A stretch of DNA of 64,000 nucleotides from a virus (lineage: Duplodnaviria; Caudoviricetes), in IMG/VR virus record IMGVR_UViG_3300032007_000071, positions 1 through 64,000 of that record. One strand, 5' to 3'. Position numbers and translations under genes: made by a program. Below are positions 11,205 through 48,878 of this stretch, in pieces. The notes under the pieces are model-generated. The model did no database searches, had not been told where the DNA came from, and saw nothing but the letters and a program-made list of their open reading frames with translations. Position 1 is the first letter of the stretch, and each line of letters begins with the position of its first letter.

Positions 11205-11449
11205 CGGTCGCAAGCTCCCTTGTTGTGGGGTCGCAGAGCTCCCTTGTTGTTGGGCGCTTCGCTTGAAATTTTATTTAGAATTTATATTTATAATTTAATT
11301 TAAAATTTTCCTGCCCACCACTTCCTGCGGATAGGGTAATTCTACGCGAACACGTACCGCGCCAGCCAATTATAAATATAATTCTAAATAACAATTATAA
11401 ATATAATTTCAAGCGAAGCGCCCCCATAATCAGGGAGCGGAGCGACCCG
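11205..11449 (-). repeat. Modular AT-rich inverted-repeat element, copy A
   Basis: ggtcgcaagctccct...gggcgcttcgcttgaaatt[AT tract]cctgcccaccacttcctgcggatagg-core-cgcgccagccaatt[AT tract]aatttcaagcgaagcgccc...agggagcggagcgacc. Confidence 0.9.
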
Positions 11450-11450
11450 G

Positions 11451-12623
11451 CTATATTCCTTTCGGCATCTTCACGCCGTAGTGCTCTCCCGCCTTGACAA
11501 TGCTCTTAGTCACGCGTCCGCCGAGGGCGATGAGCTCCTTGATGTTCAGTCCCCACTGCTTCTTGCGCTCCGGGGTCGCCTCCGGCCGTGGGTCACGCAG
11601 CCACTTCTGGAGATAGGAGATGCGCTTTTTCTTCTCCTCGTCGGTCATCGTCTTTTCGGACTCCGCCTTCTTATGGTGCGACCGCTTCGGCTTTGTTGTT
11701 CCCTTTTTGTCGTCGGTGGGGATTGTTACCTTCGGCTTCGGGTCTGCGACCTTCCCCGTCTCGGGATCGACGAGATGCGCCATGCCGAGGTCGTCGAGGA
11801 CCACATGCCCCGTGGCCACTACCCTCCCCCACTCGTCATCCAGTTCCTTGCGGAGGGCGGCGATGCGGTTGTCGATCTTCACGGCAGCTTTCGCCCACCG
11901 CTCCCGTTCGGTGGCTGTTGATTGAGGATCGTCGAGGAGCAACCGCATGTTAGTGCGTGCCGTGCCGAGGTCGTTCATCAGAGCACCATATTGTGCGGCC
12001 CGCTTCTGGGTGTCCTCGGGAAGGAGATGGATATACTGGTCGATATGCTTCGGCCGGGGCACGATGGTATTGAGGTCGGTCGTCAACAACTTGGTGTTTT
12101 GTGCCACTTTCTTGGTGTCCTGTGACAGATTATTGTCACTCGGTGACGGATTTTCGTCTTTTGCCAGCTTCTCTTTCGGGGGCCGTCCCCTACCCCTCCG
12201 TTTGGGTTCCACTTCTGGAGACGGCTTTTCTGCATCCGACGGCACCGGCTTCTGGGGCGCTACCGACTCTGGGGTGGTCGTGAGCTTCGGTCGGAACGTC
12301 GTGAGCACGTCGATGATATGGAGCACACTCCGCTTCACCGACTTCTTATAGATGGCTTCGGGGAGCCAGGTGTCGGTGGCTCTCGCAAAGGACGTCATCA
12401 GTTTCACGCCCTTCATGAAGGCCTCCTGCTCCTCGGCGCTCCACGCCCCGCTCATCTGCATCACGTCCTGCACCCTCGCCAGTGGTTCCCCGGTCTTGGG
12501 GACGAGGATCGGTGCCTGACGTTTCAGCCACTCCCCTACCCTTTCGGCCAACTTCAGACGCTCGTCTTCGGTCATGTTGTCGTAGCGTTTCAGCCACTCC
12601 CCTACCGTTATTCTTTTGATCAT
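11451..12623 (-). CDS. Hypothetical protein with AT-hook-like motif
   Basis: 390 aa; KRRGRGRPPK in a Pro-rich linker; first gene behind the promoter at 12653-12689. Confidence 0.7.
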   Translation of the reverse strand: MIKRITVGEWLKRYDNMTEDERLKLAERVGEWLKRQAPILVPKTGEPLARVQDVMQMSGAWSAEEQEAFMKGVKLMTSFARATDTWLPEAIYKKSVKRSVLHIIDVLTTFRPKLTTTPESVAPQKPVPSDAEKPSPEVEPKRRGRGRPPKEKLAKDENPSPSDNNLSQDTKKVAQNTKLLTTDLNTIVPRPKHIDQYIHLLPEDTQKRAAQYGALMNDLGTARTNMRLLLDDPQSTATERERWAKAAVKIDNRIAALRKELDDEWGRVVATGHVVLDDLGMAHLVDPETGKVADPKPKVTIPTDDKKGTTKPKRSHHKKAESEKTMTDEEKKKRISYLQKWLRDPRPEATPERKKQWGLNIKELIALGGRVTKSIVKAGEHYGVKMPKGI

Positions 12624-12652
12624 ATATAAATAAGGTATTTGTTTTTTTCAGA

Positions 12653-12689
12653 CAAAGATAATGTAGGGTGGATAAGAAGTCAAGGGCAA
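12653..12689 (-). promoter_or_regulatory. Putative late promoter (GCCCTTGAC extended -33, TAtcTTTG -7)
   Basis: Minus strand TTGCCCTTGACTTC, 20 nt from CTTG to TATCTTTG. Confidence 0.7.
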
Positions 12690-12747
12690 GGGGGAGCGTG
12701 CCTGACGGAGGCGGTCTGTTAATCTTGCTTAAATAATTGATTAATTG

Positions 12748-12779
12748 TTTGCTTGTTTGCTTAGATACTCGTATCTTTG
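12748..12779 (+). promoter_or_regulatory. Bacteroidota primary-sigma promoter for parA, overlapped by TTGCTT boxes
   Basis: TTTG(12748)-20 nt-TAtcTTTG(12772); three ttgctt motifs within 12725-12762. Confidence 0.7.
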
Positions 12780-12847
12780 CCACAGCTACAACAAAAAGAG
12801 CGATGGGTATCGCTCAACGATTATTCATTTTTAAAAGCTACAATAAT

Positions 12848-13711
12848 ATGGTAAAGAAACAGCGTACTCACGAGCTGCGTCATATCGTGGCCGTGTCCAA
12901 CAACAAAGGTGGGGCAGGCAAGACCTCTACCGTGCTCAACCTTGCGTCAGCCATCTCCCGTCGTGTGGAGGGTTATCGGGTGCTCGTCATCGACTGCGAT
13001 CCGCAGCACAACCTCTCCCAACTGCTGAAATGGGAGGACAAGATGGAACTCGACGGCAACCCCACCATTTTTAATGCACTCTGCAACCAACAGGGGCTCC
13101 CCGTTTATAAGGCACAAAACGGACTTTACTTCACCCCGGCCAGTATGAAGCTCAACGGCATCGACGTCTTCCTCTCGCAGCTGCCCAACCCTAACAAAGC
13201 ACTCCAGGAACTCTTGGAACGGCCTATCGACGACCGTACCACAACCCTACTCGGTGACACCATCGGGGAAAAGCAGTCGGTGCTCTCCCCTACCATCGCC
13301 GATAGCTTCGACTTCGTGTTCCTCGACACACAGCCTGCCATGAGCCGCATGACCTACAACGCCCTTTATGCGGCCGACGGGGTTATCATCACGACCGAGC
13401 TCGAGGAGACAAGTATCAGTGGTATGGTCAACGTGGCCGTTGCTGCCGGGAAAGTGATTGCCGATACCGGGAAACTCAATATACAAGGAATCCTGATCAC
13501 CAAGTCGGATGCCCGCTTGCGTATTGCCAAACACTACGAACCGCAGATCCGCCAGTCGTTTTGTGAGACGTTCCGCACCGTCATCCGTCAGAGCAAGGAC
13601 ATATCGGAGAGTCGTGCCCTGCATGAGGACGTGTTTACTTCTTATGCCGGTGGACGTGCCGCCGAGGACTTCATCGCCCTGGCCAACGAGTATCTGGAGA
13701 AGTTTGCTTAA
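12848..13711 (+). CDS. parA: ParA/Soj partition ATPase (type Ib-like, no N-terminal HTH)
   Basis: Deviant Walker A NNKGGAGKT, VIDCDPQ, FLDTQP; ATG at 12848 lies downstream of the promoter. Confidence 0.92.
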   Translation: MVKKQRTHELRHIVAVSNNKGGAGKTSTVLNLASAISRRVEGYRVLVIDCDPQHNLSQLLKWEDKMELDGNPTIFNALCNQQGLPVYKAQNGLYFTPASMKLNGIDVFLSQLPNPNKALQELLERPIDDRTTTLLGDTIGEKQSVLSPTIADSFDFVFLDTQPAMSRMTYNALYAADGVIITTELEETSISGMVNVAVAAGKVIADTGKLNIQGILITKSDARLRIAKHYEPQIRQSFCETFRTVIRQSKDISESRALHEDVFTSYAGGRAAEDFIALANEYLEKFA

Positions 13712-13745
13712 CCACTTGGTTACTGCATTACTTGTTTAAGCATAC

Positions 13746-13913
13746 AAGCAATACATTTATCAAGTAGAAAAGCAATACATTTATCAAGTAGAAAAGCAAT
13801 ACATTTATACAGTAGACAAGCAATACATTTATCAAGTAGAAAAGCAAAACATTTATCAAGTAGAAAAGCAATACATTTATCAAGTAGAAAAGCAATACAT
13901 TTATCAAGTAAGA
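13746..13913 (+). repeat. 24-bp tandem array (about 7 units), putative centromere/parS
   Basis: aagcaatacatttatcaagtagaa repeated directly after parA. Confidence 0.85.
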
Positions 13914-13980
13914 AAGCAAGCAATTGCCCAATTAGTAAAGCAATTAATTGTATAAGCACAACATTAAACAAGCAGACAAT

Positions 13981-14424
13981 ATGGCAAAGAAAGACAAATT
14001 CGCACAGCTCCATGCACAAGGTGGGGGGATGCTTGGTTCGGTGGGATCGTTCCAGAATCTCGCGGCAACCGTGGCAGCTATCGACCAGCAGGAGCAGCAG
14101 GAGGAAAAAGAGAACGCACATACGGAGAAAGCCACTACTCCTTCCCGGGCTAAAGAGGAGAAGCAAACGGAAAGCGCTGTCGAGGAAGAACGCTTCATGC
14201 GACTTCCCAACCCGAAGATTCCATTGACGGAATACAACCTTGTAAGCAACTATTGCAACTCGCTTCCGAACATGACAAGGCAGGACTTCGTGGAGCTGGC
14301 CATTCTCGAAAAACTCTATAAGGACTGCGGACTGCCCAAAGCACAGTTTGATAAACGTTACAAGGAGATACGCAACCGTCCGCCACGCGGACACCGGAAA
14401 GGAACTAAGCAATCAAGCAAATAA
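13981..14424 (+). CDS. Small ParA partner (ParG/ParB type Ib-like centromere-binding adaptor)
   Basis: Follows parA, flanked by repeat arrays; flexible N-terminus plus a C-terminal strand-helix-helix-like segment. Confidence 0.6.
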   Translation: MAKKDKFAQLHAQGGGMLGSVGSFQNLAATVAAIDQQEQQEEKENAHTEKATTPSRAKEEKQTESAVEEERFMRLPNPKIPLTEYNLVSNYCNSLPNMTRQDFVELAILEKLYKDCGLPKAQFDKRYKEIRNRPPRGHRKGTKQSSK

Positions 14425-14426
14425 TG

Positions 14427-14625
14427 TATTGCTTGATAAATCTAACAAGGCAATGCTTGGATAAATCTAACAAGGAAATGCTTGGATAAGCTAACAAGGC
14501 ATTGCTTTAACAAGCTAACAAGACATTGCTTGAATAATCTAACAAGGTAATGCTTGAACAAGCTAACAATACATTGCTTGAACAATACATTGCTTTGTTA
14601 AGCTAACAAGGCATTGCTTGAATAA
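14427..14625 (-). repeat. Second 24-bp degenerate tandem array (about 8 units), putative centromere
   Basis: (c/a)attgcttg(g/a)ataa(a/g)ctaacaagg units; shares the AAGCAAT core with the first array, on the opposite strand. Confidence 0.8.
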
Positions 14626-14647
14626 TTGGATAAGTAATCAATGAACC

Positions 14648-15097
14648 ATGGAGAACAAAGAGAAACCATCTGCAACAAGCAGAGAAGGGAAGGATGAGAT
14701 CACGGAGATGGTCAAAAATTTCGAGCAAGTGTTGGAAGGGCAGGACACCACAACGTTGGCACTCGAACACGAACTCGTGCGTACAATAGGGGAAAGGATA
14801 CAAGAGAGGCTCGCACGGATCAAGCAACAGACCTCCGAGGAGACGAGCAACGATCAAGAGTCTGTTGACGGGACAGCCGAGAAAGCGGTAGGGGCGTTGT
14901 GCTACCTGCCGAAATCCATTCATCGACTGGCCACACGCTATGCCGACGACCATGATGTCACCGCCAAGCGGTTCTTCTTCGAGACGATGCTGATCGGACT
15001 GGAACAGCAGGGGATCATCACCCACGAGCAGCACCTTCAGGCCCTCACGCTCCCCAACGAGTATGGCTGGAAGGGACGTGGCAGTAAGAAACCGTAA
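14648..15097 (+). CDS. Hypothetical protein (possible ribbon-helix-helix DNA binder)
   Basis: 149-aa ORF after the par arrays. Confidence 0.6.
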   Translation: MENKEKPSATSREGKDEITEMVKNFEQVLEGQDTTTLALEHELVRTIGERIQERLARIKQQTSEETSNDQESVDGTAEKAVGALCYLPKSIHRLATRYADDHDVTAKRFFFETMLIGLEQQGIITHEQHLQALTLPNEYGWKGRGSKKP

Positions 15098-15160
15098 GGC
15101 AATAACTCATCAACTTATCAACCAACTCAATAACTCAACAACTCATAAACTCAAAAAAAC

Positions 15161-15595
15161 ATGAAACACACAAAATTATTCTCAATCCTCATGCTCTTCT
15201 TCCTGGGCATGATGGCCATCAGCTTCTCAGCATGCAGCAGCAGCGACGATGACGTGGATCCGACACAGCGGTACAGGAGCCAAATCCTTGGCGAGTGGTA
15301 TTGCGACAACATTGAATATCGGTTCGAGCCGGATGGCACCGGATGGCGTAACTGCGGGGACATCATTGCCGACTTCAAGTACACCATCTATGGACAGGGC
15401 GTAAGTATGCGTCTGTTCACCTATGTCAACACTGCCACGGGAAGCATCTGGAAAGATGATGAGGGCGATGACGCTGTCTATAATCCCGAGCAGAACACCA
15501 TGCGCATCGAAGGACGTATTTTTACGCGTCAGAAGCCGACACCCAAACCGACCACGTCCACAGAGGAACCGGCCGACACCGTGGTGACGGAGTGA
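15161..15595 (+). CDS. Bacteroidota-type lipoprotein
   Basis: Signal peptide and lipobox FSAC followed by SSSDDD export-like signal. Confidence 0.75.
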   Translation: MKHTKLFSILMLFFLGMMAISFSACSSSDDDVDPTQRYRSQILGEWYCDNIEYRFEPDGTGWRNCGDIIADFKYTIYGQGVSMRLFTYVNTATGSIWKDDEGDDAVYNPEQNTMRIEGRIFTRQKPTPKPTTSTEEPADTVVTE

Positions 15596-15617
15596 TTGTG
15601 TAAATTGTAATAGGGTA

Positions 15618-15648
15618 GGGGGCACCGATCATCGGCGCCCCCTTTTTT
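15618..15648 (+). terminator. Intrinsic terminator
   Basis: gggggcaccgatcatcggcgcccccttttttt. Confidence 0.8.
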
Positions 15649-15652
15649 TGTT

Positions 15653-16165
15653 GGTCGCTCCGCTTGAAATTATACTTAAAATTTGGCCTTAAAATTTTAC
15701 TTAAAATTTGGCTGGCGCGACGAGGGTCGGTCGCAAGCTCCCTTGGTGGGGCGCTCCGCTTGAAATTCTATTTATAATTTATATTTAAAATTCTATTTAT
15801 AATGGCTGGCGCGATGATTGTTGGTCGCAAGCTCCCTTGTTGATGGGCGCTCCGCTTGAAATTTGCTTTATAATTTATATTTATAATTTTATTTAGAATT
15901 GGCTGGCGCGATGATTGATCGCCTACGGATCCGGGGTTGCCTTCATCGTAGCACCTGTACAAGACGCATGAAAGGGTGGGCAGGAAAATTTTAAATCAAA
16001 TTCTAAATAAAAATTATAAATACAATTTCAAGCGAAGCGCCCCGAAGCAGCGCGAAGCGCAAAACAATCGGTGGCTGGAAAATTTTAAGTCAAATTTTAA
16101 GTAAGAATTTTAAGTAAAATTTCAAGCACGAAGTGCGCCCCTAACAAGGGAGCTTGCGACCCGAC
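15653..16165 (+). repeat. Modular AT-rich inverted-repeat element, copy B (3 left arms, core, 2 right arms)
   Basis: Three ..gcttgaaatt[AT]ggctggcgcga units, core ending gcatgaaagggtgggcagg, two inverted units. Confidence 0.9.
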
Positions 16166-16173
16166 CATCCGAC

Positions 16174-16790
16174 ACTTCCGTTTTTGTCGGGATCTCCCTG
16201 GGAAAAGAGAGACTTCCGTTTTTGTCGGGAAATCAAGACCTATATATTTGTCCCCCAAGGCTATAAATCTGTCTTCAACGGGAAGTTATAAGAATGTCCC
16301 CAGGTTCACATTCTCGTTATCAGTCTGATAATAGCATAGTTACGTATTTGTCGTGGAAGTTGTGTTTTTCCGACCGCTTTGATTATCAATGAGTTATAGT
16401 TTTCCGACAAAAACGGAACTAAAAAAATCTCTTTATTTATTTTATTTATTACTATATATATTATATATTTATAGGTACGCGTAACTTGCTGATAATCAAA
16501 GGTTAGCCGTGTAGTTTACCGACAAAACCGTAGCTTTTTACCGACAAAAGCGGAAGTATTTACCGACAAAAGCGGAGCTTTTCTCCGACAAAAGCGGAAG
16601 TATTTGCCGACAAAAACGGAGGTCTATTCCGACAAAAACGGAGGTGGGGACAGATTCAGAGTTTTCTGTCCTTGCAGTACGACGCATTTCTCCGACAAGA
16701 AAGTAACTTGATTAAAAAGTTTCAAGTGTTAATATTTTGCAAGTTGCTGAAAATAAACAAGAAAACACTTGTCAGTTTACCGACAAATTA
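16174..16790. promoter_or_regulatory. Plasmid-type replication origin: iterons plus AT-rich element
   Basis: ccgacaaaa(a/g)cggaag iterons: two inverted (16174, 16212), one at 16402, six at about 22-bp period (16518-16645), one inside the rep promoter (16779); AT-rich stretch 16420-16475. Confidence 0.85.
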
Positions 16791-16791
16791 G

Positions 16792-16799
16792 TAACTTTG
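16792..16799 (+). promoter_or_regulatory. -7 element of the rep promoter
   Basis: TAacTTTG about 65 nt upstream of the rep ATG, with an iteron immediately upstream. Confidence 0.65.
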
Positions 16800-16862
16800 C
16801 CGTGCAATAACACCAATGAAGCTACAACACGTTGGTGTTCACCACATTAAAAAGCTACTATT

Positions 16863-17858
16863 ATGGCAAGAAAAACTCGCAAGGCCGAGCAGCTCAAACA
16901 AGAGATTGTCAACAGTGTGCCTGTAGAACAGCGTGAGATGATTACGCAGCCAATCACATTCACCTATCTCAATGGGGAAATGACGATGTTACAGACGCGC
17001 ATACAGACGATGATCATGGAGAAGCTGCAAGAGCGTATCGCCAATGCTCTTCAGAAGAGAGCGAAGGGTGGATTCACCGGGGAGCTGTTCACGGATGACG
17101 ACTTCGCGCCGCTACCAAACGGACACACGAAGTACCTCACGTTTGAGGTGAAATACTCCGAGTTGGGCGTGGAGCCTTCACACTATGAGGACATCGACAA
17201 AGCAGCACTCGCTATGCAGTCGATTATCCACTCAAAAGAGTTGACCGACGAACATGGAAAGAAATACGTCGAGTACACGGTGGTTTTTGACAAGGTAACG
17301 ATCCCCGTCAAGACAAAGGGTAGGGTAGAGCGACGTGACAGCATCAAGCTGCGGATGTTGCCGGAAACGGCACATGACCTGTTCAACATCATTCCCTACC
17401 ACCGCTATCTCAAAGATGCTGTATTCCTCTTTAGCAGTGGTTATTCGGGGCGTATATATCTTCTCATCAATGCCAACAAACGACTCGGCACTTGGAAAAT
17501 CTCCTATGAGAAACTTCGCAAGATTTTGCTCGCAAGTTATGACAATGACACAAAGCAGCTGTCAGTAGAGAAATACCCGGAGGTCTATGATTTCAAGCGT
17601 CGTGTGCTCGACGTGGCCAAAAAGGAGATTGATAAAGCCGCCGACCGCGTGGACTGCACCTTTGACTATGAGCTGGAATACCCTCATGGCAAGCACCGTG
17701 GAACACCTGAATACGTCGTGTTCCATATCCACATGACCGACTTGGGAAATCGCATCCTCCAGAAGAAGCTCGACTGCAAGCCGGCAGAGGCCATAGAGAT
17801 AAAGGAGGAAAACGAACCAAAGAATACGAACCCTATAAATGATATGAGCAAATGGTAA
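16863..17858 (+). CDS. Plasmid replication initiator (Rep_3/RepB-like winged-helix)
   Basis: QPITFTYL..MTMLQTRI; FSSGYSGRIYLLI; KYPEVYDFKRRVLDVAKKEI pattern of Rep_3 proteins; directly downstream of iterons. Confidence 0.85.
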   Translation: MARKTRKAEQLKQEIVNSVPVEQREMITQPITFTYLNGEMTMLQTRIQTMIMEKLQERIANALQKRAKGGFTGELFTDDDFAPLPNGHTKYLTFEVKYSELGVEPSHYEDIDKAALAMQSIIHSKELTDEHGKKYVEYTVVFDKVTIPVKTKGRVERRDSIKLRMLPETAHDLFNIIPYHRYLKDAVFLFSSGYSGRIYLLINANKRLGTWKISYEKLRKILLASYDNDTKQLSVEKYPEVYDFKRRVLDVAKKEIDKAADRVDCTFDYELEYPHGKHRGTPEYVVFHIHMTDLGNRILQKKLDCKPAEAIEIKEENEPKNTNPINDMSKW

Positions 17859-18751
17859 AAAAGCAAACCCCCAATTACCCCCAGCTCTGGCAGCAGTGCC
17901 TGGCAACCATCAGAAGCCAATACCCCAAGGGGGAGAAATACGACCACTGGTTCAGTGTGTGGTTCGGTGACGTGGCACTCGATGCCTACGATCCCGACAA
18001 ACGGCAGCTGCGGTTACGGGTGCCGTCACGCTACGTCTATGAGTTCCTTGAAAGCTATATGCTCAAACCGCTCAGAGCGGCCCTACAAGCCACGTTCGGG
18101 GAGCAGGTGGCACTGACGTACCGCATCATGCCGCAAGCCCCGTCATTTGCGGATATGGCCGCTTATCTGCAACATCAGTCGGGTGGGGGAGCACGACGCG
18201 ACAACCGCATCCATCTCGACAATGCTAAGGAACGGCTCGAGGACGGTCTGCGCTATTTCCTGAAAGATAAGCCGATGGAGTGGGTGAGCGGCTACGAGGA
18301 CGTGGTGAAGTTCCTCACCGACAACGACCGCCGGGGACTGCTCATCGTGGGGACACCGGGACTTGGCAAGTCGCTCATCGCCTGTCGCATCCTCCCCGTA
18401 CTACTCGCCAACGGCGTGAAGACGCCGCCCGTGGTGAGGGCCACCGACCTGCGGAAGCGGTTAGAGGAACTCAAACGCGAGCGGGTGGTCATCATCGACG
18501 ACCTCGGCAAGGAGCCCCGCAAACACTATGGCGACACCGATCAGTCTTTCTTCGAGCTCTGCGACAATGCCGAGCGCACGGGGGCGATCCTGATCATCAC
18601 CACGAATCTCGCTACCACGCCCACCGACGACCCCCGCTACTCCGATGACATCGAGACACGCTACGGAGAAGCCGTGCTCAGTCGGCTGAAGGCCATCACG
18701 CACGTCGCTGTCTTTGAGGGCAACGGACTGAGGGAGGAGGAGAAGAAGTAG
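17852..18751 (+). CDS. DnaA N-terminal domain fused to a DnaC/IstB-like AAA+ ATPase (putative helicase loader)
   Basis: N-terminus LWQQCLATI...WF..V...LRVPSRYVYEFLE like DnaA domain I; Walker A GTPGLGKS, Walker B IIDDLGKE, IITTN, SRL finger. Confidence 0.75.
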   Translation: MVKKQTPNYPQLWQQCLATIRSQYPKGEKYDHWFSVWFGDVALDAYDPDKRQLRLRVPSRYVYEFLESYMLKPLRAALQATFGEQVALTYRIMPQAPSFADMAAYLQHQSGGGARRDNRIHLDNAKERLEDGLRYFLKDKPMEWVSGYEDVVKFLTDNDRRGLLIVGTPGLGKSLIACRILPVLLANGVKTPPVVRATDLRKRLEELKRERVVIIDDLGKEPRKHYGDTDQSFFELCDNAERTGAILIITTNLATTPTDDPRYSDDIETRYGEAVLSRLKAITHVAVFEGNGLREEEKK

Positions 18752-18756
18752 AAGAC

Positions 18757-20205: not shown

Positions 20206-20238
20206 AGCCATTGATGTTTTTGTGCCACATGTATGCGC

Positions 20239-20275: not shown

Positions 20276-20293
20276 CGACAAAAAACAGAATTT

Positions 20294-20776
20294 ATGGTAA
20301 GACAGAATCCCTATTATAACAACGACCCACGGCCGTTCCTCCTCCTGCTCTATGCGATGCTGGTGATGATGTTCCTCGCCCTGTTCGGTGGCTGCACCAC
20401 CACCCGTTACGTCCAGGTGCCGGTGAGACATACCGACACGCTCCGTCTCGTCCATGAGCGGCATGACAGCGTATGGCTGCACGACAGTATCTACCAGCGT
20501 GAGTACATGCGTGGCGATACCGTCTACCGCTACATCGACCGATGGCACAACCAGTACATCAAGCAGCTCCTCCGTGACACCGCCTATATCTCCCGTCGTG
20601 ACACCGTGCCGGTGCCTTACCCCGTGGAGAAGAAGGTCCCCGCCCAGCTCGCGTGGCATCAGCAGGCACGGCTCTGGCTGGCCAACCTCGTCCTCGTGGC
20701 ACTCGCCGTGGCTGCCGGGGTATGGATCATCAGAAAACGGAGCTGGTGGCTGGAGAAGATCCGGAAGCTGCTGTAA
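20294..20776 (+). CDS. Candidate unimolecular spanin (lipoprotein with C-terminal TM helix)
   Basis: Lipobox LFGGC, beta-rich DT/DS repeats, C-terminal TMD LWLANLVLVALAVAAGVWII followed by basic residues. Confidence 0.6.
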   Translation: MVRQNPYYNNDPRPFLLLLYAMLVMMFLALFGGCTTTRYVQVPVRHTDTLRLVHERHDSVWLHDSIYQREYMRGDTVYRYIDRWHNQYIKQLLRDTAYISRRDTVPVPYPVEKKVPAQLAWHQQARLWLANLVLVALAVAAGVWIIRKRSWWLEKIRKLL

Positions 20777-20789
20777 GCCAGTTCCCCAT

Positions 20790-21225
20790 CGGTCGCAGTG
20801 CTCCCTTATTTGGGGGCGCACTTCGTGCTTGAAATTTTACTTAAAATTTGGCCTTAAAATTTTACTTAAAATTTGGCTGGCGCGATGATGGGCGGTCGCA
20901 GAGCTCCCTTATTTGGGGGCGCTCCGCTTGAAATTATATTTAAAATTTATATTTAAAATTTTATTTAGAATTGGCTGGCGCGGTGCTTGTTTCCGCATGG
21001 ACCCTATCCGCATGAAAGGGTGGCAGGAAAATTTTAAATTCAATTCTAAATAATAATTCTAAATATAATTTCAAGCGAAGCGACCAGAAGCAGCGCGAAG
21101 CGCTCCAAGCAATCGGTGGGCAGGAAAATTTTAAGTCAAATTTTAAGTAAGAATTTTAAGTAAAATTTTAAGCGGAGCGACCCCATAAAAAGCGAAGCGC
21201 CCATCAGCAAGGGAGCTTGCGACCG
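20790..21225 (+). repeat. Modular AT-rich inverted-repeat element, copy C (2 left + 2 right arms)
   Basis: Same arm and core motifs as copies A, B, D-G. Confidence 0.9.
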
Positions 21226-21529: not shown

Positions 21530-21618
21530 TGGAGTTAGGAGCTATTAGGAGTTAGGAGATAGGAGTTAGGAGTTAGGAGTTAATTTGGCACACACGATTA
21601 AAAACAATTAATAATATC

Positions 21619-22290: not shown

Positions 22291-22715
22291 TGGGGCGCAC
22301 TTCGTGCTTGAAATTTTACTTAAAATTTGGACTTAAAATTTTACTTAAAATTTTACTGCCACCGATTGCTCTGGGCGCTTCGCGCTGCTTCCCTGGGTTC
22401 GGGGCGCTTCGCTTGAAATTGGATTTATAATTTTTATTTAGAATTTGATTTAAAATTTTCCTGCCCACCCTTTCCTACGGATAGGCGGATAGCCGAACTG
22501 GATGATCCTATGGGAACGCGTACCGCGCCATCCAAATTTTAAGTAAAATTTTAAGTAAGAATTTTAAGTAAAATTTTGAGCGGAGCGACCATACAGCAAG
22601 GGAGCTTGCGACCGACAATCATCGCTCCAGCCAATTCTAAATAAAATTATAAATAGAAATTCTAAATAAAATTTCAAGCGGAGCGCCCAAAAAAAAGAGG
22701 AAGCGGAGCGACCGG
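22291..22715 (-). repeat. Modular AT-rich inverted-repeat element, copy D (core reversed)
   Basis: cctgcccaccctttcctacggatagg-core-cgcgccatccaaatttt between inverted arms. Confidence 0.9.
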
Positions 22716-22768: not shown

Positions 22769-23305
22769 ATGGCTACCATCAAGTATCAAGTCAAGGAGAA
22801 CAATACCATCGGTACTCACTCCTTCTATGCACAAGCAGTCAGTTACAGCACCCTCGACATCTCCGACCTCGCGTCAGAGGTGGCCGAGAACATCGGCATC
22901 TCGCCGTCTACCGTGAAGATGGTGCTCGAACGTTACGCTGTCGTGGCAGAGCGCAGCATCATGCGTGGCCACCGTGTGAAGCTCGGCGACCTCCTCACCT
23001 TCTATCCGCAGATCAGTGCCTCCGTCAAGGATGAGCTCGACAAGGAGGGACACGTCGTGAAGAAAGCCACAGCCGACATGCTGAAGATCTCCGGCTGTAA
23101 GAGCACCATCGGTGCCACCATCTCCCAGGCGGTGCAGCAGCAGTTCGCCGCCAAGGTGTCGTGGAAGCGTGCCGGCGAAGACGATGCTGTGACGAAGGAC
23201 GACGGCACAACGGGTGGCAGCACGCCTGGCGCATCCGGCAGTTCGTCGGAGGGTGGCAGCGCTTCCGGTTCGGGCGACTCAGGTTCTTACGGAACCAACG
23301 AGTGA
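22769..23305 (+). CDS. Bacteroidota HU-like DNA-binding protein with low-complexity tail
   Basis: DLASEVAENIGISPSTVKMVL...GHRVKLGDLLTFYPQIS typical of Bacteroidota HU variants. Confidence 0.78.
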   Translation: MATIKYQVKENNTIGTHSFYAQAVSYSTLDISDLASEVAENIGISPSTVKMVLERYAVVAERSIMRGHRVKLGDLLTFYPQISASVKDELDKEGHVVKKATADMLKISGCKSTIGATISQAVQQQFAAKVSWKRAGEDDAVTKDDGTTGGSTPGASGSSSEGGSASGSGDSGSYGTNE

Positions 23306-24150: not shown

Positions 24151-24289
24151 TTTATTATTTTCTCCCTTAATTCGCTATATATGCGCAAAAAAGATAAAAA
24201 AAAAATTTGAATCGAAATATTTACCCCGCGCCTCGCTAAGCGGTGTGGGGCGTCCGGCGGGTTCTGGCGTCCTCCGCAAATATGCAAAG

Positions 24290-24448
24290 GTAGTGCAGCG
24301 TTGGGGATAGGTAGTGCAGCGTTGGGGGATAGATAGTGCAGCGTTGGGGATAGGTAGTGCAGCGTTGGGGATAGGTAGTGCAGCGTTGGGGATAGGTAGT
24401 GCAGCGTTGGGGATAGATAGTGCAGCGTTGGGGATAGGTAGTGCAGCG
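24290..24448. repeat. 21-bp tandem array (7 full units + 1 partial)
   Basis: gtagtgcagcgttggggatag repeated almost perfectly with no spacers. Confidence 0.92.
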
Positions 24449-24645
24449 GCAAAAGGTATCCAGGGCAGCGAGAAAAGGTTTTTTGCGTATATAAGGTTCG
24501 CGCGTGCGTTAAAGAGGTACGCGCGCATGAAGCCCTCAGAACATAGTGTAAACAAACGTAAACAAATGTAACAAAACCTTTCAAACCCCTTATATAATAG
24601 GTAAAACAAAAAACGGTAACTTTATTGTTAAAAGTGTTAAGAGCA

Positions 24646-28379: not shown

Positions 28380-29402
28380 ATGACGAACAATTTCAAGGCT
28401 GCCGACCTTATCGGCAAGGAGTTAATCGTGGGCAACGGCGTTGCCAAGTACATCATTAAGAGCGTCGAGGGCGACACCTGGCGCTGCATCTTCCATCGTG
28501 ACGGGGTCAAAGACCTCGAACTTCCTATGAAGGCAGCGAGCCTGCTGAAGATGGTCGAGGAAAAGCGTGTCGCATGGGCGGATGCGCCCACCGAGGCTAA
28601 GCCCGAGAGCACCAAGGACGAGACCGCTAAGCCCGAGACTAAGCCCGAGCCTACCAAGGCAGAAACTAAGGGCGATGCAGACGACGTCGAGGAGGTCGAT
28701 GCCGAGGAAATCGAAACCCCTAAACCGAAGGCTGCCAAGCCTAAGCTCCGTGTGGTCACGGGCAAAATCGTGAAGGAGAAGGTCCGGGAAGCTATCGAGG
28801 AAGCCGAGGAGGAGGAACCTACCGAGCCTATCGACGAGACCGAGGACGACGAGCCGGAGACCGAGACCGAGGAGGAAGTCGAGGAGACCCCGAAGCCGAA
28901 AGCTAAGGCACGTAAGCGTACCGTCAAGGGTAAGTACACCTTTGCTACCTACACTACCAAGCGTGGAAAGACGGCGGGTAAGATATGCGGACTCTCCGAG
29001 GATGAGCCAGCCTATCAGCGTGCAGGTGAAATCCATGCCTCTCATACCTGGGAGCGCAAGGACGGCAAGCGAGTCTATACGCTGCTGTTCGGTCCCCGCT
29101 ATACCGATGCCGCCAAGGAGGTGTGCCGTGCCCTTAACGAGGGTGCGGACTTCGATGAGCTTCTCGACATCGTAGAGACCAACACCGAGGCACTCGCCCA
29201 AAAGCGTGCCGAGATGAAGGCGGAATACCTCGAGAAGAAAGCTAAGCGTGAGGCAGAGAAGAAAGCTGCCAAGGGTGCTAAGGGCGAGGAACTCTACACC
29301 GAGGCACAGGTGAAGGAGCGCATCCGCGCTGCCTTTGCCATGGCCGCCAAGGCGTTGAAGATAAACATCGACGACCTGGAGCCTATCATCAAGGTCGCGT
29401 AA
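28380..29402 (+). CDS. Hypothetical protein with Glu/Pro/Lys-rich linker
   Basis: 340 aa, strong codon bias, low-complexity centre. Confidence 0.75.
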   Translation: MTNNFKAADLIGKELIVGNGVAKYIIKSVEGDTWRCIFHRDGVKDLELPMKAASLLKMVEEKRVAWADAPTEAKPESTKDETAKPETKPEPTKAETKGDADDVEEVDAEEIETPKPKAAKPKLRVVTGKIVKEKVREAIEEAEEEEPTEPIDETEDDEPETETEEEVEETPKPKAKARKRTVKGKYTFATYTTKRGKTAGKICGLSEDEPAYQRAGEIHASHTWERKDGKRVYTLLFGPRYTDAAKEVCRALNEGADFDELLDIVETNTEALAQKRAEMKAEYLEKKAKREAEKKAAKGAKGEELYTEAQVKERIRAAFAMAAKALKINIDDLEPIIKVA

Positions 29403-29408: not shown

Positions 29409-29613
29409 CGGTCGCGAAGCTCCCTATCTATTGGTCGCTTCGCTTGAAATTGGATTTAGAATTATTATTTAAAATTTTATTTAGAATTGGCTGCGCGGTG
29501 ATGGTTGGTCGCCGTGCTCTCATACCGCCCTATTCGCATGAAAGGGTATGCAGGAAAATTTTAAACCCAATTCTAAATATAAATTCTAAATAAAATTTCA
29601 AGCGGAGCGACCC
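29409..29613 (+). repeat. Modular AT-rich inverted-repeat element, copy E
   Basis: Starts 7 nt after a stop codon; arm-core-arm structure. Confidence 0.9.
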
Positions 29614-29639
29614 TTCAAACTTTCAAAAACATTACAACT

Positions 29640-33492: not shown

Positions 33493-33702
33493 GGGGCGCT
33501 TCGCTTGAAATTGTATTTATAATTTTTATTTAGAATTTTATTTATAATTGGCTGGCGCGGTACGTGTACCGCAGGTTTATCCTATCCGCATGAAAGGGTG
33601 TGCAGGATAATTTTAAATCCAATTATAAATATAAATTCTAAATAAAATTTCAAGCGAAGCGACCAACAAAAAAAGGAGCGGAGCGACCCCCGATAAGCGA
33701 AA
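33493..33702 (+). repeat. Modular AT-rich inverted-repeat element, copy F
   Basis: Arm-core-arm structure just after the ardC stop. Confidence 0.9.
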
Positions 33703-38033: not shown

Positions 38034-38045
38034 AACGAGATAACG

Positions 38046-43034: not shown

Positions 43035-43050
43035 AAAAGTTCCTATACTA

Positions 43051-43228
43051 ACTCCGGGAAGAAGATATACCATCTTTTCGGAGAATGTATACCATCTTCT
43101 GGGAGAAGGTATACCAACTTTTGGAAGGGGTTAACCTCGACCGATGCTCCAAGTTAACTTCGAGCAGTGGTCCAAGTATACCTCGACCGATGCCCCAGGT
43201 ATACCTCGACTATCGGTCGAGGTATACA
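43051..43228. repeat. Degenerate ~22-bp array ending in a perfect palindrome
   Basis: Repeated gtatacc/gttaacc cores; gtatacctcgac-tatcg-gtcgaggtatac at 43199-43227. Confidence 0.75.
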
Positions 43229-43256
43229 TAAATTAAATCAATAAAAGCTACACAAT

Positions 43257-43502: not shown

Positions 43503-43545
43503 ATCACATACGACTATATAAGTTTCACATTTAATACACACAACA

Positions 43546-44220: not shown

Positions 44221-44315
44221 TTGCGAATTTCATACGGCAAAGGTTGGAAGTTACAGAAATTCTTCCTATCTTTGCCGTAGCTACAACAAAAATATTCATT
44301 TCAAAAATTAAACCA

Positions 44316-44375
44316 ATGAGTTTTATCTTCGCGCTGATCTTGCTGTACGCGGTCGTCAAGTCCGTCAATAGCTAA
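44316..44375 (+). CDS. 19-aa hydrophobic peptide with its own promoter
   Basis: MSFIFALILLYAVVKSVNS; TAtcTTTG about 50 nt upstream; GC inverted repeat downstream. Confidence 0.4.
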   Translation: MSFIFALILLYAVVKSVNS

Positions 44376-44457
44376 GACAGAAGCGCACGGGAGGGCGGTC
44401 CGCCCTAAACAAATCAACCATTAAGAACCCCGACTGATGGGCTAAACAGTTAGAAAT

Positions 44458-45183: not shown

Positions 45184-45200
45184 CTAAAATCTGAACAACT

Positions 45201-45524
45201 ATGGCAAAACTTACAAAGTTCTATTTCGATGAGCTTCCTAAAGAGCAGCAGCGTCGAGTCACGGAATCTTTCCTCGATAACGGTGGCAGTGAAGACTACT
45301 TGAATGGAAAGTTCTCTCGTGAGGAAGTCAATGTGGAGGTAGTGATTGACGAGGATGGCACGCTCTATGACTTCCGAGTATTCGACCCATTCCAGCTTGT
45401 AGATAAAGAGTTATACGTCTATGCAGACGGCTGGTCCAACTGGTTGCTCGAGTATCGTGACAACGCCGGACACGACGTGGACGAAATCCTCGATGAGTTC
45501 GACGGAGTGCCACAGGACGACTAA
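45201..45524 (+). CDS. Acidic hypothetical protein, tandem paralog 1
   Basis: MAKLTKFYFDEL...WSNWLLEYRDNAGHDVDEILDEFDGVPQDD. Confidence 0.8.
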   Translation: MAKLTKFYFDELPKEQQRRVTESFLDNGGSEDYLNGKFSREEVNVEVVIDEDGTLYDFRVFDPFQLVDKELYVYADGWSNWLLEYRDNAGHDVDEILDEFDGVPQDD

Positions 45525-45588
45525 CAAACAGGGCGTGGGGAAGCCCCGCCTAAAACAACACAACTAACAACTAACAAAGAAAGCAACT

Positions 45589-45924
45589 ATGGCAAAACTT
45601 TCAAAGTTCTATTTCGATGAGCTGAATAAAGATCAGCAGTGTCGAGTCATGATTGATTTCCGCGATAACGGTGGAAATCTCGACTACCTGAATGGAAAGT
45701 TCTCTCGCTCGGTCGTCAGTGCAGAGGTAGTCGTGGACGAGGATTTCGTCCTTTACGATATTCGGGTCTTTGATCCGTATCATCATGTAAAGAATGAGGG
45801 AGGAACCCCGATCTATATCGGGCCCGTTGGGTGGTCCAACTGGCTGTTCGAGTATCGTGACAACGCCGGGCACGACGTGGACGAGATCCTCGACGAGTTC
45901 GGCGGAGTGCCGCAGGACGACTAA
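45589..45924 (+). CDS. Acidic hypothetical protein, tandem paralog 2
   Basis: MAKLSKFYFDEL...WSNWLFEYRDNAGHDVDEILDEFGGVPQDD. Confidence 0.8.
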   Translation: MAKLSKFYFDELNKDQQCRVMIDFRDNGGNLDYLNGKFSRSVVSAEVVVDEDFVLYDIRVFDPYHHVKNEGGTPIYIGPVGWSNWLFEYRDNAGHDVDEILDEFGGVPQDD

Positions 45925-45984
45925 CAAACAGGGCGGGGGAAACCCCGCCACTATTACAACCAATAACCACCAAAACATACGATT

Positions 45985-46320
45985 ATGAAGACAACGAAGA
46001 TTACAAAGGATCAAGCTATCACAATCATCAAAAACATCTTACGTGAGGGTTGTTCAATACCAATGGCTTCCCTCGGAAATGGTGGTGGCGGGTTGTGTTA
46101 CTTGGACCCTCCACCTTCCAACGACGAAACCCCAGAGTTCCTCTCAACTCTCAAAGACAAGTCCTTCCGTATCGTTCCAACCTCTGAAATCTCAGAGGAG
46201 TTCGGAGGTCTTCACTTTTCCGAAGACTACGACGTATGCGTCGAGTTTTCATCCATGGACGGCAGTAACCCCAGTCGCGAGCAATACCTTTTGTGGAACA
46301 TCGACTATTACAAAGATTAA
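45985..46320 (+). CDS. Hypothetical protein
   Basis: atacgattATG leader. Confidence 0.6.
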   Translation: MKTTKITKDQAITIIKNILREGCSIPMASLGNGGGGLCYLDPPPSNDETPEFLSTLKDKSFRIVPTSEISEEFGGLHFSEDYDVCVEFSSMDGSNPSREQYLLWNIDYYKD

Positions 46321-46359
46321 CATTCTAAGCCCTACCGCAACACGGTTGAGCGGGAAACT

Positions 46360-46449
46360 ATGACCGATGATGTAGAGGAGGAAATCGAGTTCAGCGACGA
46401 CTATGCCGTGGACGAAGTAGGCCGCCCATACCGTGAAGATGAAGAATAA
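46360..46449 (+). CDS. 29-aa highly acidic peptide
   Basis: MTDDVEEEIEFSDDYAVDEVGRPYREDEE, aaactATG leader. Confidence 0.4.
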   Translation: MTDDVEEEIEFSDDYAVDEVGRPYREDEE

Positions 46450-46503
46450 GACTGATGGATCGGTCTTATTCCGCCCAACAACAACCCATTAAACACAATC
46501 ACT

Positions 46504-46707
46504 ATGTCTTACCGCAAACTTCGCAAGCGCTATCAGCGCATGGACCACGGCAATACCGTGCAGTTCAAACTCTACGACAAAGACCATCGGGTAATGAAGA
46601 AAGCGACCAAGAAAGCCACCGCAAAGATCATGAAGCAGTGCGTGTGGCGGAACTGGAACGCCTTGCACTATCTCGCAGTGGCCGCTAAAGAATGTCAGCA
46701 TGAATAA
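46504..46707 (+). CDS. Small basic hypothetical protein
   Basis: 67 aa, aatcactATG leader. Confidence 0.55.
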   Translation: MSYRKLRKRYQRMDHGNTVQFKLYDKDHRVMKKATKKATAKIMKQCVWRNWNALHYLAVAAKECQHE

Positions 46708-46872
46708 CCAACCCGCTTATGGTGCTTGCTCCGTCGTCTACCGTTTGGCAGACGGCAGGGAGCAGCACCTGGCTGCCTATATCCCCAACGAGAAGGTACG
46801 CCAAACCTACATCGAACGAGCCAACAAGTTTGGACTCGAAATAACAATAACACCCATCAAAAACAAATAGCT

Positions 46873-47154
46873 ATGTATCAAGCATCCGTTTCAAACCAGC
46901 ACGGTAATTATGTTGTGACCGTCTGCATGGACGACATTCACGGCTTCCGTCCTTTTGCCAACTTCGGTTGGAATCAAGGGGCAGCTATGGAGACCCGCGA
47001 CCTGATTAATCGTGGTCGTATCGAATACGAGCGGGTATGCGCCAAGATCCGCCTATACGACCCAAAGGTGCTCTACGGTTATCCTCGTTATCGTGGCAAC
47101 CGCATCGAATTCACACGCCGTAGAAAATACGTCGGGGAGACCTTCGAAGAATAA
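46873..47154 (+). CDS. Hypothetical protein
   Basis: aatagctATG leader; in frame with ORF-track 46726. Confidence 0.6.
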   Translation: MYQASVSNQHGNYVVTVCMDDIHGFRPFANFGWNQGAAMETRDLINRGRIEYERVCAKIRLYDPKVLYGYPRYRGNRIEFTRRRKYVGETFEE

Positions 47155-47232
47155 GCAATCAATACGAGCTTTATCTGCCTCGTCCGAAAATCGGGCGAGG
47201 ATTTTTTTATCATCAACCTAAAATCAAAAGCT

Positions 47233-48132
47233 ATGAGAAATCTGTTTTCTTTCGCAGCCGTGGCACTCGTCTGTGCCGCTTGTACCAATCAGACCGAACT
47301 GGCAGAGACCAGTGAAGCATCAGTAGAGAAGCAGCGGGTGACGCTCTCTTTCTCGCCCTTCACGATGACCCCCATGGGAGCCAAGGCAAGAGTGACAACC
47401 CGTGCTACGGTGCCGGTCAGTGACGTGGTGAACCGCCTCGACGTGTGGCTGATGGAGGGAGACTCCACCACGGCCCTCACGAAACGTGAGGTGGTAGCGG
47501 AAAGTCACCAGACCGCCACAGACGATGGCTTCGGCTCGTTGTCGCTCACACTCGACAAGAGCAAGACCTACACCCTCTATGCCATCGGCCACAAGGAGAG
47601 TGCGCCCACGACACTCTCCACGGGGGTGGTATCGTTCCCGGACACGAAGAAGTCGCAGACGCTCTATTATTCTACTACCTTCACGCCCGCCACAACAACG
47701 ACCCTTGAATGTAAGATGCTTCGGGCGGTGGGTATGTTCCGGGTCGTCATCGAAGACGAGATACCCTCTGAGGTGAAGAAGATTTCTATCACCGCGGACG
47801 GAACGCCGACACAGTGGAGCTTCCCACAACATGCGGGCATCACGCCGACGGACACCTACTCCATATCGTGGACGAGTTTCAAGCACGAGGCGGACGGCAC
47901 CATGTCGTTTAGTATCTATATCTTAAGCAGTGACACGGAGAAACGCTATTCCATCACGGTCTCTGCCTATGGCGCCGACGGAGCCGTGTTGAAGACCCGC
48001 ACATTCACGGACGTGCCTATCCGCAACAACTACCGCACGATCTACACCGGCCGCTTCTTTAAGGACACGCCCTTTTCCTCTAAGTTTCGGGTGGAGGAAG
48101 ACTGGCTGGAATATGACGCAGTAGCGTATTAA
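47233..48132 (+). CDS. FimB/Mfa2-family (type V pilus) lipoprotein
   Basis: Lipobox CAAC, propeptide ending VTTRA, beta-sandwich pattern, C-terminal VPIRNNYRTIYTGRFF..F.V..DW strand. Confidence 0.72.
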   Translation: MRNLFSFAAVALVCAACTNQTELAETSEASVEKQRVTLSFSPFTMTPMGAKARVTTRATVPVSDVVNRLDVWLMEGDSTTALTKREVVAESHQTATDDGFGSLSLTLDKSKTYTLYAIGHKESAPTTLSTGVVSFPDTKKSQTLYYSTTFTPATTTTLECKMLRAVGMFRVVIEDEIPSEVKKISITADGTPTQWSFPQHAGITPTDTYSISWTSFKHEADGTMSFSIYILSSDTEKRYSITVSAYGADGAVLKTRTFTDVPIRNNYRTIYTGRFFKDTPFSSKFRVEEDWLEYDAVAY

Positions 48133-48138
48133 TCTCAT

Positions 48139-48332
48139 CGGTCGCTTCGCCCCCTTCCTTTTGGGCGCTACGCTTGAAATTTTACTTAAAATTTCTACTT
48201 AAAATTTTACTTAAAATTTGGCTGACGCGACGATTGTTGGTCGCTTCGCTTGAAATTTTACTTAAAATTCTTACTTAAAATTTTACTTAAAATTCCATGC
48301 GGAACCGGATGCAGTAGGGAGCGGAGCGACTG
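48139..48332 (-). repeat. Modular inverted-repeat element, copy G left arms
   Basis: Two gcttgaaattttacttaaaatt units then ccatgcggaaccggatg, upstream of GxxExxY. Confidence 0.88.
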
Positions 48333-48360
48333 CTTATCGTTTTCTTAAATTTAATTCGCC

Positions 48361-48783
48361 ATGAATGTAATAGAAGAACATAACGCTCCGTTGGAACCGA
48401 TGCGGGTCATCACGGGCGTTGCAATGAAAGTACATGCAAAATTCCGTTCCGGTCTGTTGGAATCCGCTTATGAGGCAGCAATGGAATACTTGCTGAAGAA
48501 AGGCGGCCATGTAGTAGAGCGGCAGAAAGAGCTGCCCATATTTTGGGACGATGTTCGCTTGAATCAAACTTACCGTATGGACTTGGTGATTGACGGAGTG
48601 ATTGTAGAGCTCAAATCCGTCAGCCATACGACCGATGCACACCTTCGCCAACTGTGGAACTACATGCGTCTTACTCATACGGAGTATGGTATGCTTATCA
48701 ATTTTGGTGCTGAGCATCTGTTCTCTGTGTGGTTTCGTCGTGATCCGATTACTAACCGCATCGAGCGGGTAAAGCTCCTTTAG
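48361..48783 (+). CDS. GxxExxY protein (PD-(D/E)XK nuclease superfamily)
   Basis: GLLESAY motif, RMDLVIDGVIVELKS catalytic core, QLWNYM..GMLINFG. Confidence 0.9.
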   Translation: MNVIEEHNAPLEPMRVITGVAMKVHAKFRSGLLESAYEAAMEYLLKKGGHVVERQKELPIFWDDVRLNQTYRMDLVIDGVIVELKSVSHTTDAHLRQLWNYMRLTHTEYGMLINFGAEHLFSVWFRRDPITNRIERVKLL

Positions 48784-48789
48784 CGGTTT

Positions 48790-48878
48790 GCGCCAGCCAA
48801 ATTTTAAGTAAAATTTTAAGTAAGAATTTTAAGTAAAATTTCAAGCGAAGCGCCCCGTAACAAGGGAGCTTGCGACCG
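48790..48878 (-). repeat. Modular inverted-repeat element, copy G right arm
   Basis: gcgccagccaaattttaagtaaaatt...tcaagcgaagcgcccc..aagggagcttgcgaccga; inverted relative to the left arms. Confidence 0.9.

Follow-up and report, generated by a model that had tools for sequence, protein, structure and literature searches.

The stretch of DNA analysed here, referred to as the window, comprises bases 1-64000 of a 74,073-bp contig (IMG/VR virus record IMGVR_UViG_3300032007_000071; completeness estimate 66%), which belongs to a rumen Prevotella phage. It contains seven copies, S1 to S7 (Table 1), of a modular palindromic repeat family, the habitat of which is the chromosomes of rumen Prevotellaceae and their phage-plasmids. 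Six copies are gene-less and non-coding, span 205-513 bp and have terminal inverted arms; the seventh, S7, encloses a gene for a small nuclease of the GxxExxY (PF13366) type. This gene, which is absent from the finding of a preliminary description of the same DNA, is the defining partner of the family.

Table 1. Repeat elements, nuclease gene and adjoining features (positions in the window; arms given as left+right)
Feature	Position	Strand	Arms	Distance past upstream stop codon (nt)	Remarks
S1	11205-11449	-	1+1	3	Gene-less, reversed core
S1 neighbours		-			Minus-strand genes on both sides; S1 follows the stop codon of 11451-12623, with 27 nt between it and the start of 10653-11177
S2	15653-16165	+	3+2	58	Compound, gene-less; terminator-like hairpin before, iterons and Rep3-type gene after
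S3	20790-21225	+	2+2	13	Nested; inner B-type unit within the core of the outer A-type unit
S4	22291-22715	-	2+2	171	Compound, reversed core; HU-like gene and terminator-like hairpin upstream
S5	29409-29616	+	1+1	6	Simple, gene-less; past the stop of 28380-29402, 26 nt before the next start
S6	33493-33702	+	1+1	12	Simple, gene-less; follows the stop codon of the ArdC-like gene, next start 28 nt on
S7	48139-48878	+	2+1	6	Gene-bearing: outer left arm, truncated second inner unit, nuclease gene, inverted right arm
GxxExxY / PDDEXK_3 nuclease gene	48361-48783	+			140 aa, intact D...ExK motif
Purine-rich microsatellite	21530-21580				In the 90-bp spacer between an 89-aa gene and the HU gene

An arm profile matches 22 units on the contig (E 1e-14 to 1e-23), all within the seven sites and none elsewhere in the whole 74,073 bp, and the pattern of the arm head occurs 20 times in the window, compared with 0 occurrences in 100 dinucleotide-preserving shuffles. 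The seven places, and the range of one to three arms per side, are as the preliminary description had them. All seven sites are intergenic and fall within 11-49 kb, i.e. the half of the contig concerned with replication and anti-defence, with none in the structural genes. Most copies had been said to start 2-14 nt past a stop codon, and five of the seven indeed start at 3-13 nt, the exceptions being S2 and S4; at S1, S3, S5 and S6 the distance from the element end to the start of the next co-directional gene is 26-34 nt.

Alignment of the 22 units gives an arm of ~77 nt (60-80-nt arrays), made up of a GC head, four AT boxes and one of two junctions, with 30 alignment columns invariant in 22/22 units. 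The head (consensus GGKCGCTYCGC) forms a GC mini-hairpin; across the arms of this and related elements it has a 2-5-bp GC stem and a 3-nt loop, with at least five compensated stems (GCG/CGC, GCAC/GTGC, GACC/GGTC, GCCGC/GCGGC and CCGTC/GACGG). The box order is TTGAAATT, then three TTRRAATT-like boxes, the starts being 12, 13 and 12 nt apart (~12.5 bp); the boxes come in two flavours, A (ACTTAAAATT) and B (ATTTAGAATT and similar), and the junction is of either the alpha (GGCTGGCGCG) or the beta (CCTGCCCACC) type. The simple elements S1, S5 and S6 have a GC core of ~45 nt, with conserved ends and a variable middle, between an alpha arm and a beta arm in inverse orientation. Both core orientations occur, as noted previously, and the potential for long hairpins is supported by predicted single-strand folds (z -6.8 to -12.3 vs shuffles). 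A GC core had been ascribed to every copy; it is present in the six gene-less ones, but in S7 its position is filled by the nuclease gene.

Arms oppose each other across the core or the nuclease gene and may be stacked or nested. At compound sites, e.g. S3, an inner unit with its own inverted terminal head motifs lies inside the core of the outer unit, which argues for nested insertion. The two arms of an element are 80-85% alike, compared with 92-98% for same-side arms of different elements, suggesting that whole elements have been copied from a master and that pairing within elements has not been preserved. Selection for perfect hairpin pairing within elements was ruled out, since the arms cluster by type across sites and not by element.

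The S7 protein matches both PF13366 (PDDEXK_3; E 1.3e-30, 106.5 bits, cut-off 22) and TIGR04256 (GxxExxY; E 2.1e-32, 111.9 bits, cut-off 35), and residues G31, E34 and Y37 of the GxxExxY motif and D74, E83 and K85 of the D...ExK motif are invariant in 39 homologues. The ratio of nonsynonymous to synonymous substitution rates (dN/dS) is 0.05-0.13 where dS is unsaturated, which, together with the invariant D...ExK motif, argues that the nuclease is maintained under strong purifying selection. The subfamily comprises 4,926 proteins at E 1e-10; comparison of the S7 protein with the PDB by sequence gave chance matches only (E above 0.2), and with PHROGs no family. The function of PF13366 is listed as 'unknown' in the only survey naming it (PMC3424549), and a full-text literature search for GxxExxY found no paper on repeats.

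Arms and nuclease beyond the window

The view that the repeats match no named family is upheld, in that the whole window has 0 Rfam matches at gathering score (a permissive scan gave sub-threshold generic long hairpins only, at ~30 bits compared with gathering scores of 89-211), that DNA similarity searches of deposited phages and plasmids gave no match in either near or distant mode, and that a literature search found no published description. With the arm model, however, the family was also detected in four further virus records (G001-G004; 57-141 kb), and among 185,579 species genomes scanned with the pattern there were true arm-profile matches at 13 loci, every one of which, where the title was inspected, is from a metagenome-assembled genome (MAG) of rumen Prevotellaceae or of Bacteroidales; ~107 of the 120 pattern matches were chance matches without arm-profile support. 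The family is thus not a peculiarity of a phage; it occurs widely in the chromosomes of rumen Prevotellaceae and in several phages.

In five Bacteroidales/Prevotellaceae genomes, each with 1-3 PF13366 genes, there are at least 4-25 arm matches per genome (at least 16-25 in four of them), these counts being lower bounds. The bacterial arms are distributed among many contigs, where most form plus/minus pairs and many lie at the contig ends. These bacterial genomes have dozens of gene-less arm pairs vs 1-3 nuclease genes; the corresponding stoichiometry on the phage contig is 22 arms to 1 nuclease gene. MAG contigs may hold misbinned phage DNA; several of the contexts carry housekeeping genes.

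The arrangement of arm, gene and inverted arm recurs in phages G002 and G004 and on a contig binned to a Prevotella MAG (L142), and in G001 an arm follows the gene end. In related phage-plasmids encoding a 76% identical nuclease (P0027) the package lies at a different position, after a DnaA_N-like gene, and one identical protein (P0052) is found with arms in at least three chromosomal neighbourhoods. In the P0052 copies the arm ends ~12 nt before the ATG, the inverted arm begins ~6 nt past the stop and 0-2 additional arm-pair hairpins follow downstream; similarity between the contexts ends at the inverted termini, which are CATGGGTCGC (left) and GCGACCCATG (right). Overall, hairpin repeats lie both 5' and 3' of the nuclease gene at S7, in G002 and G004, at L142, at the P0027 and P0052 loci and at L253-L256, with the nuclease open reading frame (ORF) within 4-12 nt of the arms in independent contexts. 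Phage homologues of 58-63% identity have the same grammar (head hairpin, GAAATT, phased boxes) with box and stem sequences of their own, so that the arms co-diverge with the nuclease, and one 58% homologue has a weak arm only. Among the loci fetched, the GC core motif of the gene-less phage copies matches only close relatives; in metagenome contigs it gave one chance match, to unrelated GC-rich DNA.

In several contexts, in one of which the upstream gene is divergent, the ATG lies 4-12 nt past the arm, which suggests that the arm may supply a promoter. The arms as sigma-70 promoters or intrinsic terminators were ruled out, the consensus counts equalling the shuffled expectation; the Bacteroidota promoter type is outside the scope of the tool used.

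Most chromosomal P0052 copies are bordered, in both orientations, by a further, unrelated host repeat of ~50-190 bp (flanks of L190 and L243; L189, L191, L193 and L195), which is present in tandem at the Rce1 locus described below. On viral contig L257, a PF13366 gene of 40% identity has a different repeat on either side, built from CACGAAG-type heptamers (~1350-1500 and ~1830-1930).

Gain, loss and homogenisation of copies

Among bacterial loci encoding an identical 273-aa Rce1-like protein, the gene-bearing element is present in four and absent from three. A filled locus (L243) and an empty one (L242) have flanks identical at 581/599 positions (97%) and differ by an insert of 692 bp, which consists of the element with ~40 and ~97 nt of flank and ends in a second copy of a ~50-bp host repeat; no short target duplication is seen in the pair. 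Presence and absence between conserved flanks in close relatives is also the pattern of free-standing homing endonuclease genes.

Among the phages, G002 is syntenic with the contig at 70-80% nucleotide identity. At the orthologous G002 junctions there is neither S1 nor S2, the gap at S2 being ~490 bp shorter with no arm match; S3 is absent together with the adjoining ORF 20294-20776, and S4 together with ORF 22769-23305. By contrast, S5 has an orthologue in a collinear block (G002 95528-95695), which carries the box flavour of G002, S6 has a probable orthologue at the circular junction of G002, with ~35 nt of matching right flank, and S7 occupies the same syntenic place in G002 and ten close relatives. 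G002 has two sites of its own, one of them just upstream of the ArdC-like gene, where the window has a 31-bp spacer. Fixation of all copies at orthologous sites in distant relatives had been named beforehand as the mark of static regulatory sites; it holds for S5, S7 and probably S6, so that some of the copies are old, but not for S1-S4. The comparison of filled and empty orthologous loci, likewise proposed previously, gave differences in presence and absence, but neither a target-site duplication nor a clean empty site for the phage copies.

Copies within a genome are 84-90% alike in the contig and 86% in G002, compared with 75-81% for orthologous or cross-genome pairs, and the gene-less copies of G002 have a private box flavour; copies have thus been homogenised within genomes. 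In near-identical relatives with the same Rep protein, S1-S3 are 99.7-100% identical (S1 100% in L055; S2 1337/1341 in L056), and S4 is diverged in L056, with core indels. L056, L057 and L058 have an eighth element (1+1 arms, ~255 bp) between the 89-aa gene and the HU gene, where the window has a 52-bp GGAGTTAGGAG-type microsatellite. In ten relatives S7 has one left arm, compared with two here, the extra unit of ~76 nt lying exactly between two head motifs. The head motif is where arm units are gained and lost, and units nest in one another's cores.

Some further observations concern the surroundings of the elements. Element borders are indel hot spots, and purine-rich microsatellites of GAATGAA, GATGGAT and GGAGTTAGGAG types adjoin elements or replace one in three phages (L011 340-380, L015 1680-1710 and the window, Table 1). 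A segment of ~12 kb (window 6600-18750) is inverted in G002 (76794-85473), with a lone arm and core remnant at one inversion boundary (G002 76694-76755) and no arm at the other. A gene for an N6/N4 DNA methyltransferase directly follows the right arm of S7 in L045, L050, L051, L053 and L054 (~10604-11353) and in G002 (~14975-15700), and is absent from the window and from L046-L049. The possibility that S3 and S4 bound a composite transposon, or a cassette, with the HU gene as cargo was ruled out, since G002 has the enclosed genes without either element.

Comparison with known systems and possible explanations

The closest analogues of the family are the REPIN-RAYT and Ssn-NTS systems. Repetitive extragenic palindromic (REP) sequences and REPINs are built on an imperfect palindrome of 20-40 bp that bears a GTAG or CGTC tag, and the gene for their Y1/HUH transposase, RAYT, is flanked by the repeats (PMC3733652). 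As with the present elements, the palindromes are extragenic, lie mostly downstream of coding regions and often form inverted doublets, giving larger hairpins (PMC3733652); the unit recognised is probably a small hairpin next to a fixed motif, the dedicated gene itself lies between inverted repeats, and gene-less inverted doublets far exceed gene copies. By contrast, the enzyme here, of 140 aa, belongs to the PD-(D/E)XK nucleases rather than to the Y1/HUH tyrosine transposases, each arm is an array of 60-80 nt with four phased AT boxes and no GTAG or CGTC tag, and the family is also found in phages. In the Ssn system, small GIY-YIG nuclease genes are flanked on both sides by hairpin repeats, which also occur in hundreds of gene-less copies and are cut as single-stranded DNA; Ssn modulates transformation, and no mobility has been proposed (PMC11893778). 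The Ssn-NTS/SRM system resembles the present one in that a nuclease gene lies between hairpin repeats that are also numerous without a gene, and in that the repeat sequence co-varies with the nuclease across taxa. It differs in its nuclease class (GIY-YIG, with 0 matches on the contig) and in its short single hairpin repeats, whereas here the unit of gene plus arms, known from sequence alone, occurs in multiple contexts.

MITEs (miniature inverted-repeat transposable elements) that Prevotella and its phages have in common were catalogued in bulk, with no families described and no nuclease linked to them; like the present elements, they are short, non-coding, intergenic and multi-copy, have terminal inverted repeats and can nest (PMC11602168). 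They differ in that the present elements show no target-site duplication, that the contig, searched for Y1 transposases and tyrosine recombinases, gave no classical transposase and no related insertion sequence was found, that the ends of the present elements are multi-unit arrays of variable unit number, and that the gene-bearing form carries a nuclease and not a transposase. The suggestion in the preliminary description of a likeness to REP sequences and bacterial interspersed mosaic elements (BIMEs), or to MITEs, stands for a dispersed, modular, palindromic and intergenic family that is variably present among relatives, but not for MITEs in the strict sense. The contig has no match to PF01797 (Y1/HUH, RAYT), PF01541 (GIY-YIG) or PF00589 (tyrosine recombinase/integrase), the record being estimated as 66% complete. 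Integron attC cassette sites were ruled out, as the contig has no PF00589 match and G002 possesses the genes that lie between S3 and S4 while lacking both elements.

Free-standing homing endonuclease genes of phages, such as those of the T4 seg/mob type, are similar in that a small nuclease gene lies between conserved phage genes, is present or absent among relatives and, apparently, has flank co-converted with it, as in the L243/L242 pair; we know of no homing genes with long inverted repeat arms, or that leave a large set of gene-less derivatives. The Correia elements of Neisseria and the BIMEs of Escherichia coli are modular palindromic intergenic repeats that are co-transcribed with their neighbours and can serve as RNA-processing, stabilising or protein-binding sites; Correia elements carry TA duplications. 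To our knowledge neither has an embedded PD-(D/E)XK gene, and their sequence families and hosts are unrelated to those of the present repeats.

The link between repeats and nuclease very likely reflects, in our view, a partnership, and real turnover or mobility of the copies is likely. We lean towards the combined reading that the window holds six gene-less copies and one gene-bearing copy of a repeat family partnered with, and driven by, the GxxExxY nuclease, and the family is probably a selfish DNA element. On its own, a role for the nuclease as the driver of spread is plausible from the comparisons but stops a little short of an even chance, and homing-like copying is a tentative, rather doubtful proposal for the route. 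Under that proposal, the nuclease would bind the box array and cut at or near the head hairpin, and the break would be repaired by copying another copy (gene conversion or homing-like repair), so homogenising the copies within a genome and altering unit numbers; occasionally a copy would land at a new intergenic spot with short homology. Homing-like repair from another copy would account for the missing target duplication, the co-converted flank, the unit changes at heads and the nesting in cores. Phage copies would survive only in slots just behind stop codons, where an insert may be tolerated because it is harmless. Most phage copies are probably transcribed as long hairpins in polycistronic RNA and, by analogy with REP and Correia elements, which exert such effects, may influence RNA 3'-end protection, pausing or RNase III cleavage. 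We put forward as speculative, and on present evidence unlikely, the fullest form of this reading, in which the arm-GxxExxY-arm unit would be a mobile element that propagates itself and is of a so far unpublished kind, with a minimal nuclease that recognises phased boxes and a terminal mini-hairpin and breaks the DNA, copying by repair that also gives gene-less derivatives, and phage-plasmids as vehicles between Prevotellaceae hosts.

Several points weigh against the nuclease as driver. The evidence is comparative throughout. An AlphaFold2 model of the S7 nuclease (predicted local distance difference test score 95.9) has an alpha-beta core, the solved Foldseek neighbours of which (Cas4, lambda exonuclease, Uma2-like proteins and Hjc) are generic PD-(D/E)XK proteins at a template-modelling score of ~0.45, so that the fold is silent on substrate. 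One 65% identical homologue (P0120) is without arms, and in both this contig and G002 the gene-less copies differ in box flavour from the arms around the resident nuclease gene. As would be expected of a functional site, S5, S7 and probably S6 have kept orthologous positions despite 20-30% divergence in nucleotide sequence. The eighth element lies at the edge of a recombinant mosaic segment, which is 87% identical vs 99.7-100% elsewhere. No clean empty site was found for the phage's own copies, the ends of the S1 and S2 empty sites in G002 not being placeable because the intergenic DNA is too diverged, and none of the seven sites is bordered by a direct repeat that could be a target-site duplication. 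Finally, ordinary homologous recombination between host repeats would explain the filled and empty pair without a nuclease.

This last point is shared with a partnership of the Ssn kind without self-mobility, which we consider a less likely but serious alternative. In such a partnership, the nuclease would be specific for sequence or structure and would use the repeats as recognition sites in some function of cell or phage (such as recombination control, DNA uptake or element competition), the repeats would multiply by ordinary recombination and slippage, and the nuclease's own sites would flank its gene for regulation and not for transposition. The published Ssn layout (PMC11893778) matches, and strong purifying selection on the nuclease and the fixation of some copies at orthologous sites agree with it. 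However, the same nuclease allele is found with arms in several unrelated neighbourhoods, the shared sequence ending at inverted termini, the package lies at different places in related phages, and copies nest in each other's cores; a copied unit fits these observations better than a set of recognition sites does.

The phage copies might instead be static cis-regulatory hairpins, i.e. intercistronic terminators, RNase III-type RNA-processing sites or operator arrays for a DNA-binding protein of the phage, conserved because they are needed by it, in one of which the nuclease gene merely landed, and the intergenic RNase III sites of T7 are a precedent. The location of all seven sites between genes, close behind stop codons in five cases and shortly before the next start at S1, S3, S5 and S6, their confinement to the replication and anti-defence half and the conservation of S5-S7 in G002 are all as expected of such sites; two HU-like genes beside S3 and S4 would suit operator arrays, and a concerted change of boxes within a genome is also expected from co-evolution with one binding protein. 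We nevertheless consider static hairpins improbable, given that dozens of copies are scattered over Prevotellaceae chromosomes, where the arm-gene-arm package recurs, that four of the seven sites are dispensable in the syntenic G002, that arm number differs between near-identical genomes, that the pairing of arms within elements is not maintained, and that terminator and promoter consensus counts are at chance level. Ordinary MITEs, moved in trans by a conventional host-encoded transposase with the nuclease gene as a passenger, are a very improbable explanation. Inverted repeats at the ends, a small size, a place between genes and dispersal in many copies fit MITEs, which are known in bulk from Prevotella and its phages (PMC11602168), but neither the seven sites nor the L243/L242 pair has a target-site duplication, and the contig has neither a Y1/HUH transposase nor a tyrosine recombinase; moreover, co-diverging arms within 4-12 nt of the nuclease ORF in independent contexts would be unexpected for a random passenger.

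Independently of its driver, the present work contributes a resolved anatomy of the repeat family (head hairpin, phased boxes, two junctions, nesting, and gain and loss of single units), its occurrence in both phages and host chromosomes, and the polymorphic presence of a gene-bearing copy between strains with 97% identical flanks. A self-propagating unit of arms and nuclease, if real, would give a role to the very common PF13366 family. Were the nuclease to act on the arms, it would add to RAYT and Ssn a third class of enzyme associated with hairpin repeats in genomes and be a possible source of structure- or sequence-specific DNA tools, and the repeats would be a marker linking rumen phages to their hosts. 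In practical terms, the repeats break short-read assemblies, and many homologues are on contigs of ~1 kb.

Neighbouring genes and other repeats

The contig carries genes of plasmid type and for anti-defence, encoding ParA-like, Rep3-type, DnaA_N-like and HU-like proteins, PcfJ/PcfK, ArdA and an ArdC-like protein, together with a SNF2 helicase of 1,662 aa; a tRNA scan found no tRNA genes. A 22-bp iteron array (TTCCGTTTTTGTCGG-like; window 16165-16650) lies directly between S2 and the Rep3-type gene (16863-17858) and is probably a plasmid-type replication origin. Four more tandem arrays, which are not related to the arms, are at 13690-13992, 14415-14649, 24261-24469 and 43134-43225, with periods of 24, 24, 21 and 23 bp, respectively; the first two, close to the ParA-like gene, are possible partition or centromere-type sites. 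Imperfect coding repeats of 39/51 bp (window 54100-54350), within a minus-strand ORF of 679 aa (53662-55701), encode a low-complexity stretch that is acidic and proline-rich.

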